A stretch of 4,768 nucleotides of DNA from Escherichia coli (GCF_003334255.1 NZ_QOWU01000107.1), one strand, 5' to 3'; positions 1 through 4,768 are shown, numbered from the stretch's first letter. Made by a program: numbers and translations. The notes: generated by a model not told the origin, from the sequence alone.

Positions 1-180
1 CACGCCTGAAGGGAAAGCTGCACGTTATCAGCAAGCGTTACACTCAGCGCATTGAGCGACATAATCTGAATCTGAGACAACATCTGGCAAGGCTGGGACG
101 GAAGTTACTGTCGTTCTCAAAATCGGTGGAGTTGCATGACAAGGTCATCGGGCATTATCTGAACATAAAACACTATCAGT
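1..180 (+). CDS. insB: IS1 transposase InsB, C-terminal fragment (5' end outside window)
   Basis: Open frame from nt 3 to TAA at 178-180 (59 codons), near-identical to the recalled IS1 InsB C-terminus. Two residues differ from the canonical copy as I recall it (KLL for KSL, KVIG for KIIG), suggesting an IS1 iso-form. Confidence 0.85.
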
Positions 181-197
181 AAGTTGGAGTCATTACC
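175..197. repeat. IS1 terminal inverted repeat (right end)
   Basis: 23-bp sequence atcagtaagttggagtcattacc matches the IS1 IR consensus. Confidence 0.85.
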
Positions 198-267
198 TCC
201 TCCCGAACTCAAAGCTATCATACAGATAATTACTGGTTAACCCTATATAGGGCATTTTAAAGTGTTG

Positions 268-633
268 TGATCTTACCCAGCAATAGTGGACACGCGGCTA
301 AGTGAGTAAACTCTCAGTCAGAGGTGACTCACAAGACAAAACAGTTTCAACCAGTAAAAAAACGTAAACACCATTCGCATGAATTTCGTAGTTAAGATCT
401 GAAGCTTGCAGAATGCATCGGTATTACTGCCGGAGTCCGTGAACTTAGTCTGCATGAATCACCACAGCTTTACATCTGTCGCAGTAAACAGCAAAATCAG
501 CAAACTTACTTAATTATATCGAGTGCGATTACAATCGCTGGCGATGGTACAGTTGGTGTGGCGGTCTCAGTCCGGAACAATTTGAAAATCAGAATCTCAC
601 TTAAAACGGCATCCATTTTACAAAAGATGGCCG
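268..633 (+). mobile_element. IS3-like (IS3 family, IS3 group) remnant with a large internal deletion: left IR plus degenerate orfA 5' part joined to orfB 3' end plus degenerate right IR
   Basis: Sequence from 268 (tgatcttacccagcaatagtggacacgcggctaagtgagtaaactctcagtcagaggtgactcac) matches the recalled IS3 left end. Downstream sequence is diverged orfA-like coding (..KQQNQQ). At about 505-512 it switches to sequence encoding [31 protein letters not shown] (509-604), compared with IS3 InsF C-terminus [31 protein letters not shown]. The right IR region (about 596-633) is recognisable but degenerate. Confidence 0.75.
333..604 (+). pseudogene. Degenerate IS3-like transposase remnant: orfA 5' fragment (start codon ATG replaced by AAG, frameshifts, in-frame TAA) fused by deletion to the last 32 codons of orfB
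   Basis: AAG at 333-335 sits where IS3 orfA has ATG. Translation tracks IS3 OrfA (TKTVSTSKK.., [18 protein letters not shown]) only with indels and a stop. The orfB tail frame is intact from 509 to TAA at 602-604. Confidence 0.7.
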
Positions 634-893
634 TCTGTGTATTTGTAATGAATACCTTCTACATGTTTAGAGTGCATAATCCACGACAAGGCGATATCCT
701 AAAAATTAGCTAGCAGGCAACTTTGATGGCATAGATAATGTTTTTAGTAAAAAAGAGTTGACTGAATATAATACAGCCTCTTCCTACATAAGAAGGAATG
801 TGCTCACAAAAAAAAACCATTAGTCTGCTTCCTGTTCTTACAATAATCAGTATTATGTATTTTATTTATATAGCAAAATATGCTTGTTACACC

Positions 894-902
894 TGTCATA
901 AT
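894..902 (+). promoter_or_regulatory. Candidate extended -10 promoter element (TGtCATAAT) upstream of the small ORF
   Basis: TG at 894-895 lies one base upstream of hexamer CATAAT at 897-902, about 42 bp upstream of ATG 944. No convincing -35 was found, consistent with an extended -10 promoter. A purine-rich Shine-Dalgarno GGGGGAGA lies at 933-940. Confidence 0.25.
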
Positions 903-943
903 TAGGCATGGTAAAATTATTGACTGAACCCTGGGGGAGAAAG

Positions 944-1201
944 ATGCACAGTGATTATTATAATATGGTTTTTGGTGAAAAATTGGCCAATATTTTATAT
1001 GAAGCTAACTCTCAATTTTTTTACGAGAGAAATGTCATAGAAGAGGCAGTCAACGCTTTATTCTGTGAGCGTGAAATAATAAACAACAAGAACATAATAA
1101 AGAAGCTGATGTTCTTTTTGTCAGATGTTAATCACACCAAGAAAGATGTTGTTCAGAGCGCACTTAATATTATCATTGACATTACATCAGGTGATATTTG
1201 A
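944..1201 (+). CDS. Hypothetical small acidic protein (85 aa), AT-rich, no family recognised
   Basis: The ORF runs 908-1201 in the track. I favour ATG 944 (MHSDYYNMVFGEKLANILYEANSQ...) because GGAG at 936-939 sits 4 nt upstream, whereas ATG 908 has only AGG at 1-nt spacing. The sequence is strongly AT-biased with asparagine/isoleucine/lysine-rich codon usage typical of horizontally acquired DNA. Confidence 0.45.
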   Translation: MHSDYYNMVFGEKLANILYEANSQFFYERNVIEEAVNALFCEREIINNKNIIKKLMFFLSDVNHTKKDVVQSALNIIIDITSGDI

Positions 1202-1478
1202 GATTTTACATAAAGGATAATCTCTCAAGGAGTCTTATCTGAAAACGAAATATATAGTCCCTCTCGTTTTGTAATATCGATTGGCTTTGTTGAATCGGTT
1301 ACGTACCCCGGAGCCGGTCATATTTTCAGGTAATACACACGCTTTCAGACATTTCGGCTTTCGTCATTTTGGTATCATGGGCATAGCTTCTGCTACCTGA
1401 CCATCATAATCACGCAGCTTCAGTGAAGCAGTGACCACCTGTTTAACCCGGTGTATCGTTATGATCTTATCCAGCAAT

Positions 1479-1669
1479 TGAACCGCCCCGGGTTTCCTGG
1501 AGAGTGTTTTATCTGTGAACTCAGGCTGCCAGATCATCGTTTCCGATGGAAGCATAATAAGCTTTTTCTGCTTCTGCCGGTGGGATATGGCCCTGCCTTT
1601 CCAGCAATCGTCGATTGTTATACCAGTCCACCCACGTGAGTGTGGTCAGCTCATCATACTGACACGTGC
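1479..1669 (-). mobile_element. IS629/IS1203-like (IS3 family, IS51 group) right-end remnant: terminal IR plus 3' end of orfB, truncated on the other side
   Basis: The plus strand from 1479 reads TGAACCGCCCCGGGTTTCCTGGAGAGTGTTTTATCTGTGAACTC, which matches the recalled IS629-type terminal repeat. The minus strand from 1669 to 1521 encodes ..YDELTTLTWVDWYNNRRLLERQGHIPPAEAEKAYYASIGNDDLAA*, an rve/DDE integrase-core C-terminus typical of this group. No upstream transposase sequence is recognisable beyond about 1669. Confidence 0.7.
1521..1669 (-). pseudogene. IS3-family (IS629-like) transposase OrfB, C-terminal 49-codon fragment
   Basis: Minus-strand frame is open from 1669 to TGA (complement of 1521-1523). 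It carries the WxxWYNxxRxxxxxGxxPPxExE..YY motif of IS3-family integrase cores. There is no start codon and it is truncated at the 5' side. Confidence 0.65.
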
Positions 1670-1800
1670 ATTACCCCTACCGCGATAATGCAACCGTACA
1701 ATATAGGGCGTTTCCTAAACGCAGCCCTCATCACTCCAATCCAACAAGACACAGCATTTTTGATCACGAAGAAAGACAAATAATTTCCGTAAATGTTTCC

Positions 1801-1818
1801 GTTGTTACAAATAACAAC
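1801..1818. promoter_or_regulatory. Candidate operator: inverted repeat GTTGTTA-caaa-TAACAAC upstream of the phytase-like gene
   Basis: Perfect 7-bp arms with a 4-bp spacer at 1801-1818, about 115 bp upstream of ATG 1934, preceded by direct repeats TTTCCGT at 1784-1790 and 1796-1802. No cognate regulator is encoded in the window. Confidence 0.25.
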
Positions 1819-1933
1819 AGTGTTTTACATTTCTTTGGCCTCAGGCCCGCGCATGTTGCCATTCGATGTCATTTTCCTGACTCGTTTCTTCTTTATGGTG
1901 TAGTGTGATCTTCACTTTATGGATGCTAACAAT

Positions 1934-3292
1934 ATGAAAAGAAAAATTATTCCCGTGCTAATCGGTTGTACGCTCTCTTTCTCTGCCCTGGCGGCACAAC
2001 CTACGGCTGAGCGCTATGTCGTCAGTTTTCCAGAAGGCACGCACGTGAACTACGCCGGCGCATTTGCCAGTGCATTCCCGAACGGCCTTCCGGTTGGGAT
2101 AGGTTCTGGCCTGCTGTTCACCGGTAAACAGGGCGATGCCCTGACATTCGCAACCATTACCGATCGCGGTCCGAACGCGGATTCACCGAAAGAGGGGAAA
2201 AACGAAACTAAAATTTTCGTTACGCCAGATTTCGCGCCGCTGCTGATGACGATTCGTGTACAAAACGGCAAAGCGGAGGCCATCGATCCCCGTCCTCTGC
2301 ATGACGATAAAGGCGCGATCAACGGTCTGCCGCTGGCAAGCGACGTGATTGGCTCCACCAATGAAGTGGCCTTCAGCGACACGTTACATAGACTGAAGGG
2401 GGATAATCGCGGGCTGGATACGGAAGGGATCACTCCGGATGGTAAAGGAGGTTACTGGCTGTGCGATGAGTATGGCCCGTTCCTGATTAACATCGACAGT
2501 AAAGGGAAAATCCTGGCAATCCACGGTCCGCAGGCGGCGGAAGGGGAAAAAGCGATTGCGGGCGGTTTGCCAAATATCCTCAAATGGCGTCAGGCGAACC
2601 GCGGCTTTGAAGGCCTCACCCGTATGCCGGACGGGCGTATTATTGTCGCCGTGCAAAGTACGCTGGATATCGACGCTAAGAGCAAGAAAAAGGCGCTGTT
2701 TACGCGTCTGGTGAGCTTCGATCCGGCAAGCGGAAAAACCGCGATGTACGGTTATCCTATCGACAGCGCGGCCTACAGCAAAAACAGCGACGCTAAAATC
2801 GGAGACATCGTGGCGCTCGATAACCAGCACATCCTGCTGATCGAACAGGGAAGAGATAAAAACAACAGAATGCGTAACCTGATTTACGAGGTCGATCTCA
2901 ATAAGGCGAGCGACCTGTCAGGCTTCGACAAGCCGGGTGAGTATCCGGAGTTTGATGATGAGAAAACCCTGTCACAGCGCGGCATTACCCTTGCGCAGAA
3001 AACGCAGGTTGTTGATCTGCGCTCCTTGGGCTGGCAGCAGGAGAAGGCTGAAGGGTTGGCGCTGATCGACAGCAAAACGCTGGCGGTGGCGAACGATAAC
3101 GACTTTGGCGTGAAGGTGGCGATGCAACATCCGGTCGAGGGCAAGACATTCAAGGATTATCGGGTGAACGCGGAAGGAAAGCTGACGCTTGACGACAAGC
3201 AGGTTGAAACGACCCTCAGAGTGAAGCCACTGGAGAAACCGGAGTCTGACAGTGAACTGTGGATTGTGACGCTGCCGGAAGCGTTGAAATAA
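1934..3292 (+). CDS. Secreted beta-propeller protein of the phytase-like / SdiA-regulated (YjiK-like) superfamily, often annotated 'esterase-like activity of phytase family protein'; 452 aa from ATG 1934
   Basis: Long ORF 1919-3292. I favour ATG 1934 because it gives a classic Sec signal peptide (MKRKIIPVLIGCTLSFSALA|AQPT) and has GGA 10 nt upstream; ATG 1919 is the in-frame alternative. Motifs GIGSGL...ITDRGPN, DTEGITPDGKGGYWLCDEYGP, NRGFEGL and NDNDFG match recalled signatures of Pfam phytase-like (PF13449) and SdiA-regulated beta-propellers. Codon usage is typical enterobacterial and GC is clearly higher than in the AT-rich segment upstream. Confidence 0.9.
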   Translation: MKRKIIPVLIGCTLSFSALAAQPTAERYVVSFPEGTHVNYAGAFASAFPNGLPVGIGSGLLFTGKQGDALTFATITDRGPNADSPKEGKNETKIFVTPDFAPLLMTIRVQNGKAEAIDPRPLHDDKGAINGLPLASDVIGSTNEVAFSDTLHRLKGDNRGLDTEGITPDGKGGYWLCDEYGPFLINIDSKGKILAIHGPQAAEGEKAIAGGLPNILKWRQANRGFEGLTRMPDGRIIVAVQSTLDIDAKSKKKALFTRLVSFDPASGKTAMYGYPIDSAAYSKNSDAKIGDIVALDNQHILLIEQGRDKNNRMRNLIYEVDLNKASDLSGFDKPGEYPEFDDEKTLSQRGITLAQKTQVVDLRSLGWQQEKAEGLALIDSKTLAVANDNDFGVKVAMQHPVEGKTFKDYRVNAEGKLTLDDKQVETTLRVKPLEKPESDSELWIVTLPEALK

Positions 3293-3530
3293 GTTTATAA
3301 GGTACGGACAGCAGTATCGCTTAGTTTTTCAAATTCATGTATGTGAACAATATTGGGGTTCCGGCGTAGACCCCCAATGAAAGCGTCACCACGTGAAAAC
3401 ATGCCTGCACGGTTTACACGTCATCCCATGGTGGCAGCCGGTTAACTTTCCTGCTACACCAGTGGAAAAAGGCCATAAGCAGTCCGAACAAAAGTAAGCG
3501 TACAGCGAGGGCCGTATTGACGGGGATGTG

Positions 3531-4768
3531 TTATTCAGCTGGCAGTGCTATGCGCCACGGAAGCAGTTCGCTGACCCGGTTGACCGGCCAGTCTGCTATG
3601 ACGCCAAGCACATGGCGAAGGTAGCTTTCTGGATCCACGTCATTCAGTTTGCACGTCCCGATCAGGCTGTACAGTAGCGCTCCCCGCTCACCACCATGGC
3701 CAGAGCCGAAGAACAGGGTCTTCATCTTTTCACGCAACCAGCTTTCCAGGGATTTCAACAGCGGTTTCGTTTTTCGCTGACGTTCAGCAAGCCGCTGCTA
3801 TGCCGGCATTCCCCTTATATCCGCCTCTATGGCGTACAACTGACCGATCTGCTCCAGGGCTTCTTCCGTCAGTGCTGACGGGATGCGGACGTGCATATCG
3901 TGGATCTTTCGGCGGGCATGAGCCCAGCAGGCAGCTTCCGTTATCCCACCATTGCGATACAGCTCGTTGAACCCGGCGTACGCATCCGCTTGCAGCACAC
4001 CGCTGAAGCAAGCAAGATGAGTCTGCGGATGGATGCCTTTTCTGTCCGGGCTGTAAGCGAACCTCACTGCAGGTGCCAACGCTGACCCGGCATTGCGGTC
4101 ATCACGAACATACGCCCACAACCGCCCGGTCTTCGTCTTCTTATTACCCGGCAGCAGTACCTGGACCGGGGTATCATCGGCATGGAGTTTGCCGTCAGTC
4201 ATGACATCGCCATGAAGCGCCTCTTCCAGCGGAGACAGCAGCCGGCAGCATGCATCCACCCAGCCCGACAGCAGTGAACGGCTCAGCTCCACACCTTGCC
4301 GGTCGTATATTTCTGACTGGCGATACAGCGGGGTGTGCTCTGCATACTTCGAGGTCAGCACGCGGGCCAGCAGCCCCGGTCCGGCGATACCCCGCTCGAT
4401 GGGCCGCGAAGGTGCAGGTGCCTGCACGATGGCATCGCACTGAGTACAGGCATGTTTTTCCCGTACCGTCCGGATAACCCGGAAGGCGCTACGCATCAAC
4501 TCCAGCTGTTCGGCGGTATCCTCGCCCAGATAGCTCAGTGAACCGCCGCAGTTCGGGCAGCACGGCGCCGCAGGCAACAGCCGCTTTTCGTCACGGGGTA
4601 GTGATTCAGGGAACGGCTTACGGGGGCGGGTCTGACGCAACGGACGCTGTACTGCCGGGTCATACACCCTACCAGTCAGCGTATCGCTCTCTATCGCTCT
4701 CTTTCTGAAGCCGGTTCAGATCGGCTTCCATTTGTGCGATACGGCGGGAGACTTTTTCGGAACGACTG
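3531..4768 (-). pseudogene. tnpC: IS66-family transposase (TnpC/orf3) pseudogene: N-terminal frameshift from a 10-bp tandem duplication, in-frame TAG, and a probable in-frame internal deletion
   Basis: Minus-strand ORF 4667-3798 (..[39 protein letters not shown]..) ends at TAG (complement of 3798-3800). The same frame continues [71 protein letters not shown] to 3531. Upstream of 4667 the conserved N-terminal sequence (..[25 protein letters not shown]) is in a different frame, offset by the duplication at 4682-4701. Confidence 0.85.
4682..4701. repeat. Perfect 10-bp tandem direct duplication (tatcgctctc x2) inside the IS66 transposase 5' region
   Basis: Read directly: 4682-4691 and 4692-4701 are identical. 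The unit is not a multiple of 3, so it shifts the frame. Removing one copy joins ..LQKESD to [17 protein letters not shown].. in one frame. Confidence 0.9.

Follow-up and report, generated by a model that had tools for sequence, protein, structure and literature searches.

How did the remnants of several insertion sequence (IS) elements come to lie around two intact genes on one short stretch of Escherichia coli DNA, and does such an arrangement belong to a plasmid, to a site that is still rearranging, or to an older structure? The stretch that we analyzed (4,768 bp of GCF_003334255.1, NZ_QOWU01000107.1; referred to here as the window) had been taken, in a sequence-only reading, for a recombination hotspot or a plasmid-like scaffold. 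We find that the window is chromosomal and not plasmid, and we put at roughly 0.88 the probability that it is a fossil patchwork within the chromosomal genomic island at leuX, one that was assembled once as a block and then spread.

Composition of the window

IS-derived DNA accounts for 2197 of the 4768 bp (46% of the window) and falls into six pieces of five IS types, which are listed here together with the cargo genes.

1..197, plus strand: right end of IS1F (3′ portion of insB with the terminal inverted repeat, ending at 197); 100% match to K-12 IS1F
268..621, plus strand: IS3-like element, internally deleted; blastn to K-12 IS3A and NCBIfam IS3 C-terminus match
908..1201, plus strand: cargo gene 1, an AT-rich YmgB/AriR-family open reading frame (ORF) of 97 aa; Pfam YmgB PF10798
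1282..1461, minus strand: terminal fragment of an IS903-like (IS5 family) element; blastn, tblastn and end repeat
1462..1478, plus strand: second IS3 left-terminal-repeat stub (TGATCTTATCCAGCAAT); direct allele comparison
1479..1652, minus strand: 3′ end of an IS629/IS1203-like element; identity to IS1203/IS3-family plasmid copies and NCBIfam IS3 C-terminus match
1934..3292, plus strand: cargo gene 2, a phytase-like esterase with an N-terminal signal sequence; Pfam PF13449
3377..3494, minus strand: DUF6404 gene fragment, last 25 codons and downstream DNA; 91.5% nucleotide identity to an IncFIB/IncI plasmid
3494..4768, minus strand: ISEc8-like (IS66 family) element, end repeat and most of tnpC; 98-99.6% identity to ISEc8

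All four of the IS elements named in the sequence-only reading are present, but the IS903-like end and the second IS3 terminal stub had been overlooked. Nor do the elements alternate in orientation as had been described: the four run plus, plus, minus, minus, and all six run plus (IS1F), plus (IS3-like), minus (IS903-like), plus (IS3 stub), minus (IS629-like), minus (ISEc8-like). Three of the four had been called truncated or decayed; every IS copy in the window is in fact defective, but IS1F and the ISEc8-like element are cut by the edges of the window only. The window is also a compositional mosaic, its GC content ranging from 32 to 65% (AriR-like segment 32%, phytase segment 55%, ISEc8 57-65%).

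Elements of the IS1 family are about 768 bp long, with a terminal inverted repeat and insA/insB reading frames, and give rise on simple insertion to a 9-bp target-site duplication. The 197 bp of IS1F in the window are identical (197/197) to K-12 IS1F, lie at the same site beside fecI-ykiE, and match the NCBIfam profile for the IS1 transposase C-terminus (6e-9). The element starts 574 bp to the left of the window; the copy in strain E110019 is full length (771 bp), and the genome annotation marks the transposase as a pseudogene carrying an internal stop. We found no 9-bp target duplication of IS1F, either here (flanks ggggatttc and tcctcccga) or in K-12 (right flank gaccatgtt). ISEc8, of the IS66 family, has the gene order tnpA-tnpB-tnpC and terminal repeats, is about 2.44 kb long, and produces an 8-bp target-site duplication. 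Counted in window coordinates, the copy studied here reaches position 5792; tnpB and tnpA fall outside the window. The assignment of this copy to ISEc8 is borne out by both end repeats (GTAAGCGTACAG), by intact tnpA and tnpB genes, and by a match to the NCBIfam IS66 transposase profile (1.2e-88; 297.8 bits against a cutoff of 180). It measures only 2299 bp because of a 148-bp deletion in tnpC (at about 3717, flanked by ACAGG), and compared with the allele in TUM2805 the gene has a nonsense codon (3798-3800) and a 10-bp duplication (4682-4691), so that this copy has no intact transposase. An 8-bp target duplication is likewise missing from its flanks (gaacaaaa vs cactattt). Because both IS1F and ISEc8 are without target duplications, we regard each as a rearrangement joint, which leaves the identity of IS1F as an IS1 element unaffected.

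The other IS pieces lie between these two joints. IS3-group elements have terminal repeats starting with TGA, carry orfA/orfB, and are about 1.26 kb long. In the window the left terminal repeat of such an element (TGATCTTACCCAGCAATAGTGGACACGCGGCTAAG) is read at 268 and its left end extends to 505, with 271-505 corresponding to IS3 positions 1-235 (88% by blastn to K-12 IS3A) and the following 112 bp, 510-621, corresponding to positions 1131-1242, the last part of orfB (84%). The two parts belong to one element, which has lost about 895 bp of its middle as well as the right terminal repeat; what is left is a remnant and not an element in its own right. The IS903-like piece begins at 1282 with its outer end repeat (GGCTTTGTTGAA), followed by the last ~30 transposase codons; it matches residues 277-304 of the IS903B transposase (tblastn, 2e-8), and 1306-1458 is 76.7% identical to IS903B at the nucleotide level over 153-163 bp (blastn), an identity that marks the fragment, labeled IS5/IS1182 in RefSeq, as a diverged relative and not IS903B proper. 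Next to it, the second IS3 stub is shorter in the window (17 bp) than in the alleles of TUM2805 and 24AR0357 (35 bp). The IS629-like piece comprises a terminal repeat (TGAACCGCCCCGGG) together with ~44 codons from the end of orfB; its terminal 175 bp (from 1478/1479) are 95.4-97.1% identical to IS1203/IS3-family plasmid copies, and both the piece and its tblastx similarity end at 1652, leaving one end of the element only. End repeat and transposase 3′ end are thus both in place for the IS629/IS1203 and the IS903-group assignments.

The two intact non-transposase genes reported earlier are indeed both there. The first, with a GC content of ~32%, is annotated with different starts (908, 920 or 944), matches Pfam YmgB (PF10798, 7e-6) and the YmgB structure PDB 2oxl (E = 0.0016), and is named a biofilm development regulator YmgB/AriR family protein in RefSeq. 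The second, which matches PF13449 at 7.5e-43, encodes 452 aa from an ATG at 1934 (the longest ORF begins at 1919) and has orthologues of 79-89% identity in Enterobacter, Pluralibacter, Scandinavium and Pantoea. Since orthologues in Enterobacter hormaechei and [Enterobacter] lignolyticus are chromosomal and IS-free, and the native Enterobacter context lies near yjiA-yjiX-cstA, the context of the phytase-like gene in the window is not ancestral, in agreement with the sequence-only reading; nucleotide homology (84%) is confined to 1779-3295, which approximates the imported segment. In addition, 118 bp derive from a DUF6404 gene, which elsewhere is characteristic of F-type plasmids; the remainder of this gene does not lie across ISEc8 on its other side. 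The cargo genes are probably driven by their own upstream DNA, and the arrangement as a unit is without function.

Position in the leuX island and spread as a block

The chromosome of E110019 contains the window at 100% identity, 13 kb from a tRNA-Leu gene and directly to the right of fecIRABCDE-ykiE-IS1F, and the window occupies the same place in strains S88 and ETEC1732. Because its coordinates in S88 (4834587-4839353) fall within those published for PAI-S88-leuX (Fec, Ag43; 4821000-4862061; PMC7545054), we assign it to that island; a leuX island with fec, the sialic-acid genes yjhATS and fim has also been described (PMC4374849). Adjacency to a tRNA gene, DNA that differs from that of K-12, mosaic GC content and abundant IS remnants all characterize the locus as a tRNA-associated genomic island, and the suggestion that it might be a degraded island is supported. 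The annotations of E110019, S88 and ETEC1732 show no integrase next to leuX. This kind of feature is already known, and the island itself is already catalogued.

Of 5426 complete E. coli genomes, 1435 have at least 80% of the window at a single location, 1612 have at least 80% of a 10-kb stretch from fecR to Gp2, and 2192 have the phytase segment. From ahr to the Hha fragment, E110019, S88 and ETEC1732 are 99.95-99.99% identical over 20-23.6 kb, whereas the pepA-yjgR core flank is 98.4% identical in both comparisons with ETEC1732 (a core difference of ~1.6%) and ~98.3-99% identical, by 2-kb bins, between E110019 and S88; it is from the flanks of these three strains that lineage diversity was gauged. 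That the island blocks are nearly identical despite core divergence of ~1.6% argues that the mosaic was assembled a single time, became frozen, and was then passed on whole, and the near-identity of these sequences points to horizontal spread of a frozen block rather than ancient vertical conservation. The sequence-only reading had named a syntenic occurrence in the core chromosome of distantly related strains as evidence that would tell against it; essentially such an occurrence is what we observe, but in an accessory island and not in the core.

Could the locus nevertheless be an active recombination or transposition hotspot that is still rearranging? Structural alleles do exist. In TUM2805, 18 additional bp are present and tnpC is uninterrupted, and 24AR0357 is without ~1.2 kb that includes the AriR-like gene, a difference that could reflect deletion between two IS3 ends, or an insertion, and whose joint retains a 3-bp discrepancy. 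Match patterns suggest further alleles in EC102, whose match falls into two parts spread over 5547 bp, with an IS1 gene underlying it (an apparent extra IS1), and in KL53, in which only 51% of the phytase segment matches, beside a zinc-ribbon gene (an apparent truncated phytase gene). On a Salmonella plasmid the end of the remnant is 14 bp away from an independent IS903-type insertion, and the phytase segment is more widely distributed than the window. However, many genomes of varied hosts and lineages are 100% identical over the window or differ by one base in an A-run, every IS copy inside it is defective, and the variants amount to a handful of deletions, not to reshuffling. Given this, and the number of genomes that share the arrangement, we consider the claim of an active hotspot unlikely.

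Cargo and plasmid copies

A different possibility is that the block is kept as an accessory to ferric-citrate uptake, with the secreted phytase-like esterase, imported from an Enterobacter-like donor, and the AriR-like regulator as selected cargo and IS1F as a launch pad that repeatedly exports genes to plasmids. Behind this reading stand the linkage to fec, the plasmid copies bounded by IS1, and a phytase segment that is present, its reading frame intact, in 40% of complete genomes; were it true, the cargo might, for example, free iron or phosphate from gut phytate complexes. We regard it as very improbable.

Plasmid origin, whether in a large virulence or resistance plasmid or as an integrated plasmid scaffold, seems to us highly improbable, despite several observations that lend it some color. 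Sub-segments of the window occur on IncF, IncHI1B and other plasmids, the DUF6404 stub resembles (91.5% identity) a gene beside ccdAB and traT on an IncFIB/IncI plasmid, and copies of ISEc8 and IS1203/IS629 are common on EHEC plasmids, so that the stub, ISEc8 and IS629 may originally have been plasmid-derived. Yet the 30 full-length matches listed are all on multi-megabase chromosome records, beside fec and tRNA-leuX, and the sole full-length "plasmid" records are untypable, 655 kb long, and carry the chromosomal genes nanSMC, gntP and uxuAB; they look like mislabeled pieces of chromosome. No replication, partition or transfer genes were found within 15-20 kb at the chromosomal loci of E110019, S88 and ETEC1732. 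True plasmids contain only IS1-bounded sub-segments, such as 198-1372 on an IncFIB plasmid, where it adjoins an IS1F-type copy, and 1282-4470 between IS1 copies on an IncHI1B plasmid, one end of which cuts ISEc8 tnpC at 4470; 42 plasmid records have at least 80% of 198-1320, and 76 at least 80% of 1300-1700. By this subset argument, the plasmid copies suggest export from chromosome to plasmid. Phytase-like and AriR-like fragments on plasmids are thus IS1-bounded pieces of the block, most likely derived from it, and make poor plasmid markers, and some very large PLSDB "plasmid" records with the region are apparently pieces of chromosome.

An assembly artefact, with repeats collapsed or misjoined as can happen with short-read data in IS-rich regions, we reject as having next to no likelihood, since many laboratories and platforms have yielded the same arrangement, 99.7-100% identical among the full-length matches listed (the type strain ATCC 11775 and S88 included), and it is present at 80% or more, in one place, in the 1435 complete genomes.

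Proposed history and relation to known systems

The locus arose through repeated insertion and deletion, an earlier suggestion that the nested remnants, the internal deletions and the missing target-site duplications at IS1F and ISEc8 all uphold. Foreign pieces (the AT-rich AriR-like gene, the 1.5-kb phytase segment and the DUF6404 stub) are joined end to end at IS ends or remnants, and the insertions are nested, IS3 having entered the IS903-like element and the IS629-like element then IS3; deletions afterwards took away most of each element. The order and number of these past events are read from present structure alone. We propose that a single assembly in an ancestor of the block was followed by movement of the finished block among E. 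coli lineages with the island, probably through flanking homologous recombination or island transfer. Changes since then would comprise only a few deletions between IS remnants and point lesions, and IS1 copies would have captured sub-segments and transferred them to plasmids. As the window shows, an IS-dense patchwork can be an old, frozen structure that travels as a block, and its density of IS elements need not mean that a locus is still unstable. These findings assign the window firmly to a catalogued chromosomal island and set right the guess of a plasmid; beyond annotation they have little importance.

The closest known relative is the PAI-S88-leuX/leuX island itself, which is related to KpLE2 of K-12 and occupies the same position on the chromosome, with tRNA-leuX on one side and the nan/fim genes on the other. 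The KpLE2 region has the same fecIRABCDE-ykiE-IS1F module, 99.5% identical over 10 kb, but to the right of IS1F K-12 continues with yjhU-yjhF-yjhGHI-sgc, whereas the window continues with the IS3 remnant, the AriR-like gene and the phytase-like gene; no homology between K-12 and the window was found past position 197. From the literature only, the locus may also be likened to the integrase-mobilized SRL pathogenicity island at serX of Shigella flexneri, in which a fec operon lies in an IS-rich, Ag43-bearing, tRNA-associated mobile island (PMC7545054); unlike the vicinity of the window, that island carries a resistance locus and a functional integrase. Lastly, the plasmid copies resemble IS1-bounded translocatable segments of the composite-transposon type in that sub-segments of the window likewise lie between IS1 copies, one of them joined to an IS1F-type element in just the way found in the chromosome. 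Among the IS1 copies at the flanks are hybrids and other IS1 variants (90-94% identical), which makes homologous recombination an equally good route.

Composition of the window

A reading made from sequence alone had described four IS elements (IS1, IS3-like, IS629-like and IS66-family) in alternating orientations around two intact non-transposase genes, and took them to mark a recombination hotspot or a plasmid-like scaffold. All four named elements are matched in the window and the count of two genes is correct, but an IS903-like piece and a second IS3 stub had been overlooked, and the elements do not alternate (the order is + + − + − −).

Features of the window
1–197, + strand: right end of IS1F, 100% identical to K-12 IS1F
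268–505 and 510–621, + strand: one copy of an IS3-like element, 88% and 84% identical to K-12 IS3
908–1201, + strand: AT-rich ORF of the YmgB/AriR family (Pfam, 7e-6; PDB 2oxl, E = 0.0016)
1282–1461, − strand: IS903-like terminal fragment beginning GGCTTTGTTGAA, ~77% identical to IS903B
1462–1478, + strand: second IS3 left end, a 17-bp stub (35 bp in other alleles)
1479–1652, − strand: terminal 175 bp of an IS629/IS1203-like element, 95–97% identity
1934–3292, + strand: phytase-like esterase gene (PF13449, 7.5e-43)
3377–3494, − strand: last 25 codons of a DUF6404 gene and downstream DNA, 91.5% identical to an IncF-type plasmid gene
3494–4768, running on to 5792, − strand: ISEc8-like IS66-family element in which the two terminal repeats are present and tnpA and tnpB are intact

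IS-derived DNA accounts for 2197 bp (46%) of the window, and GC content differs stepwise between its parts: the AriR-like segment has 32%, the phytase segment 55% and ISEc8 57–65%. No RNA family scored above threshold in an Rfam scan of the window, and a repeat search of it returned only short, chance-level repeats, missing the two IS3 left ends because of a mismatch near their middle. From the first IS3-like element (268–621), ~895 bp of internal sequence and the right terminal repeat have been lost. We found no IS903 or IS629 coding sequence past 1652, nor the remaining half of the DUF6404 gene beyond ISEc8. As judged from the order of the pieces, the succession of IS903-like end, IS3 left end and IS629 end reflects insertions nested one within another and afterwards cut back by deletions. 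On the Salmonella Typhimurium plasmid NZ_CP149333.1 (6290–7330 of the compared locus) an intact IS903-type element lies 14 bp to the left of the end of the IS903-like remnant (window 1267–1282); a related element has independently hit almost the same spot.

The IS1 and IS66-family elements are truncated solely by the edges of the window, although both are pseudogenised. Three lesions affect the ISEc8-like tnpC: ACAGG flanks a 148-bp deletion, positions 3798–3800 form a nonsense codon, and 4682–4691 is a 10-bp tandem duplication. Target-site duplications were sought around IS1F and ISEc8 and found at neither, and the present junctions are therefore rearrangement joints and not simple insertions. 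In 24AR0357 (5631–7016 of its locus, L021) and in a further allele (locus L004, 15549–16934), tnpC is annotated as an intact transposase of 461 aa, ~50 residues short, in the region of the 148-bp deletion, of the 512-aa ISEc8 protein.

Other structural alleles exist. That of TUM2805 is 99.0–99.4% identical to the window; its second IS3 end is 35 bp long and its 461-aa tnpC is uninterrupted. That of 24AR0357 lacks ~1.2 kb including the AriR-like gene and has a single IS3 left end at the joint. This joint (L021 3540–3600, compared with window 255–310 and 1455–1500) holds a 35-bp IS3 left end of the second-copy type. The 3 bp ahead of it (TTG) are missing as well, a loss not accounted for by a plain crossover of the two IS3 ends. 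Match tables suggest further alleles with an extra IS1 (EC102) or larger deletions (KL53).

Provenance of the cargo genes

Neither cargo protein has an NCBIfam match. Searched against PDB sequences, the phytase-like protein had no match; the top match of the AriR-like ORF, a de novo designed helical protein, was treated as spurious, YmgB (2oxl) ranking second. A run of nine A residues (808–816) lies ~95 bp upstream of the AriR-like ORF; S88 has eight, the sole difference between S88 and the window, and many further genomes are also one base off the window in total length. This length difference could reflect slippage, sequencing noise or a tuning site.

The proposal that the cargo genes are not in their ancestral context held for the phytase-like gene. 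Its orthologues (79–89% identity) occur in Enterobacter hormaechei, [Enterobacter] lignolyticus, Pluralibacter, Scandinavium and Pantoea, and in the first two the gene sits in an IS-free chromosomal neighbourhood near yjiA-yjiX-cstA. Since nucleotide homology of those loci to the window is confined to 1779–3295, that is the gene and ~140–155 bp upstream, a non-ancestral context is supported. The nucleotide identity seen there is 84%; a protein match at 94% (P0002) may lead to a nearer donor. In both species a BrnT/BrnA toxin-antitoxin pair lies a few kb from the native gene, on different sides, and in some E. hormaechei strains a glycosyltransferase and Wzy_C pair is inserted directly after it, which makes the native site variable as well.

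A chromosomal block of which plasmids carry parts

The entire 4768 bp is present at 100% identity in E. coli chromosomes, for example those of E110019 (85805–90572) and the type strain ATCC 11775, and S88 matches it at full length. Of 5426 complete E. coli genomes, 1435 have 80% or more of the window at a single place; for the 10-kb stretch from fecR to Gp2, 1612 genomes reach at least 80%.

The window is not plasmid. All full-length matches listed from the complete genomes lie on multi-megabase chromosome records, and genuine plasmids carry only subsets: an IncFIB plasmid has 198–1372, which is joined directly to an IS1F-type copy and ends at another IS1, and an IncHI1B plasmid has 1282–4470 flanked by IS1 copies, the ISEc8 tnpC being cut at 4470 by one end. 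At least 80% of 198–1320 occurs in 42 plasmid records, and at least 80% of 1300–1700 in 76. This pattern of subsets suggests that IS1 may have moved segments off the chromosome. Both records that match at full length in PLSDB (655 kb) are untypable and carry nanSMC, gntP and uxuAB. Filed there as plasmids are AP026530.1 and NZ_CP128951.1 (655 kb), CP054241.1 (834 kb) and NZ_CP141089.1 (4.9 Mb). NZ_CP128951.1 holds fec alongside those chromosomal genes, AP026530.1 has equal length and coordinates, and the other two are suspect by size alone; these records resemble parts of chromosomes, or entire ones, and inflate plasmid match counts.

Nor is the window an active hotspot; variation exists but is limited. 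ETEC1732, E110019 and S88 share 20–23.6 kb, from ahr to an Hha fragment, at 99.95–99.99% identity, whereas the neighbouring pepA-yjgR core flank is 98.4% identical in both ETEC1732 comparisons and about 98.3–99% (2-kb bins) between E110019 and S88. In these three strains the near-identity has its left edge between yjgR and ahr. Such near-identity at an accessory site points to horizontal spread of a finished block. E110019 and S88 also share a second stretch at 99.8–100%, paeA-tamAB-ytfQ (L012 1–12000 and L013 493–12500, respectively), ~50–60 kb left of the island in a region where they are otherwise 1–2% apart; this is probably another recombination tract.

The leuX island

In E110019, S88 and ETEC1732 the leuX tRNA gene lies ~13 kb from the window and fecIRABCDE-ykiE-IS1F directly to its left. 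To its right follow the remainder of the IS66-family element, two zinc-ribbon genes and an inovirus Gp2-family gene, and farther on nanSMC-fim or an Ag43/antirestriction/YeeU module. On the S1-KEN-03-A chromosome (L016 5468–9365) a capU-virK-lpxM(msbB2) module and a polysaccharide deacetylase gene lie just left of fec. This module is better known on Shigella and EAEC virulence plasmids. We considered a different chromosomal site for the block in this strain and rejected it as unproven, as the left neighbours capU, virK and lpxM/msbB2 match leuX-island variants; variants with Fec/VirK/MsbB2 are listed for ED1a and CE10 (PMC7545054).

Structures of this kind are known, and the island is a catalogued one. 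The observation made from sequence alone was mostly right; of its explanations, the degraded island was right and the plasmid wrong. The counter-evidence named against it, this arrangement intact and syntenic in the core chromosome of distantly related strains, is present in substance, although the site is an accessory island. PAI-S88-leuX (Fec, Ag43) is listed at NC_011742 4821000–4862061 (PMC7545054), and the S88 position of the window, 4834587–4839353, falls within that range. A leuX island containing fec, yjhATS and fim has also been described for K-12 and Shigella (PMC4374849). K-12 carries this IS1F at the same site, the right 197 bp of its IS1F matching window 1–197 at 100%, but shares no homology with the window past position 197.
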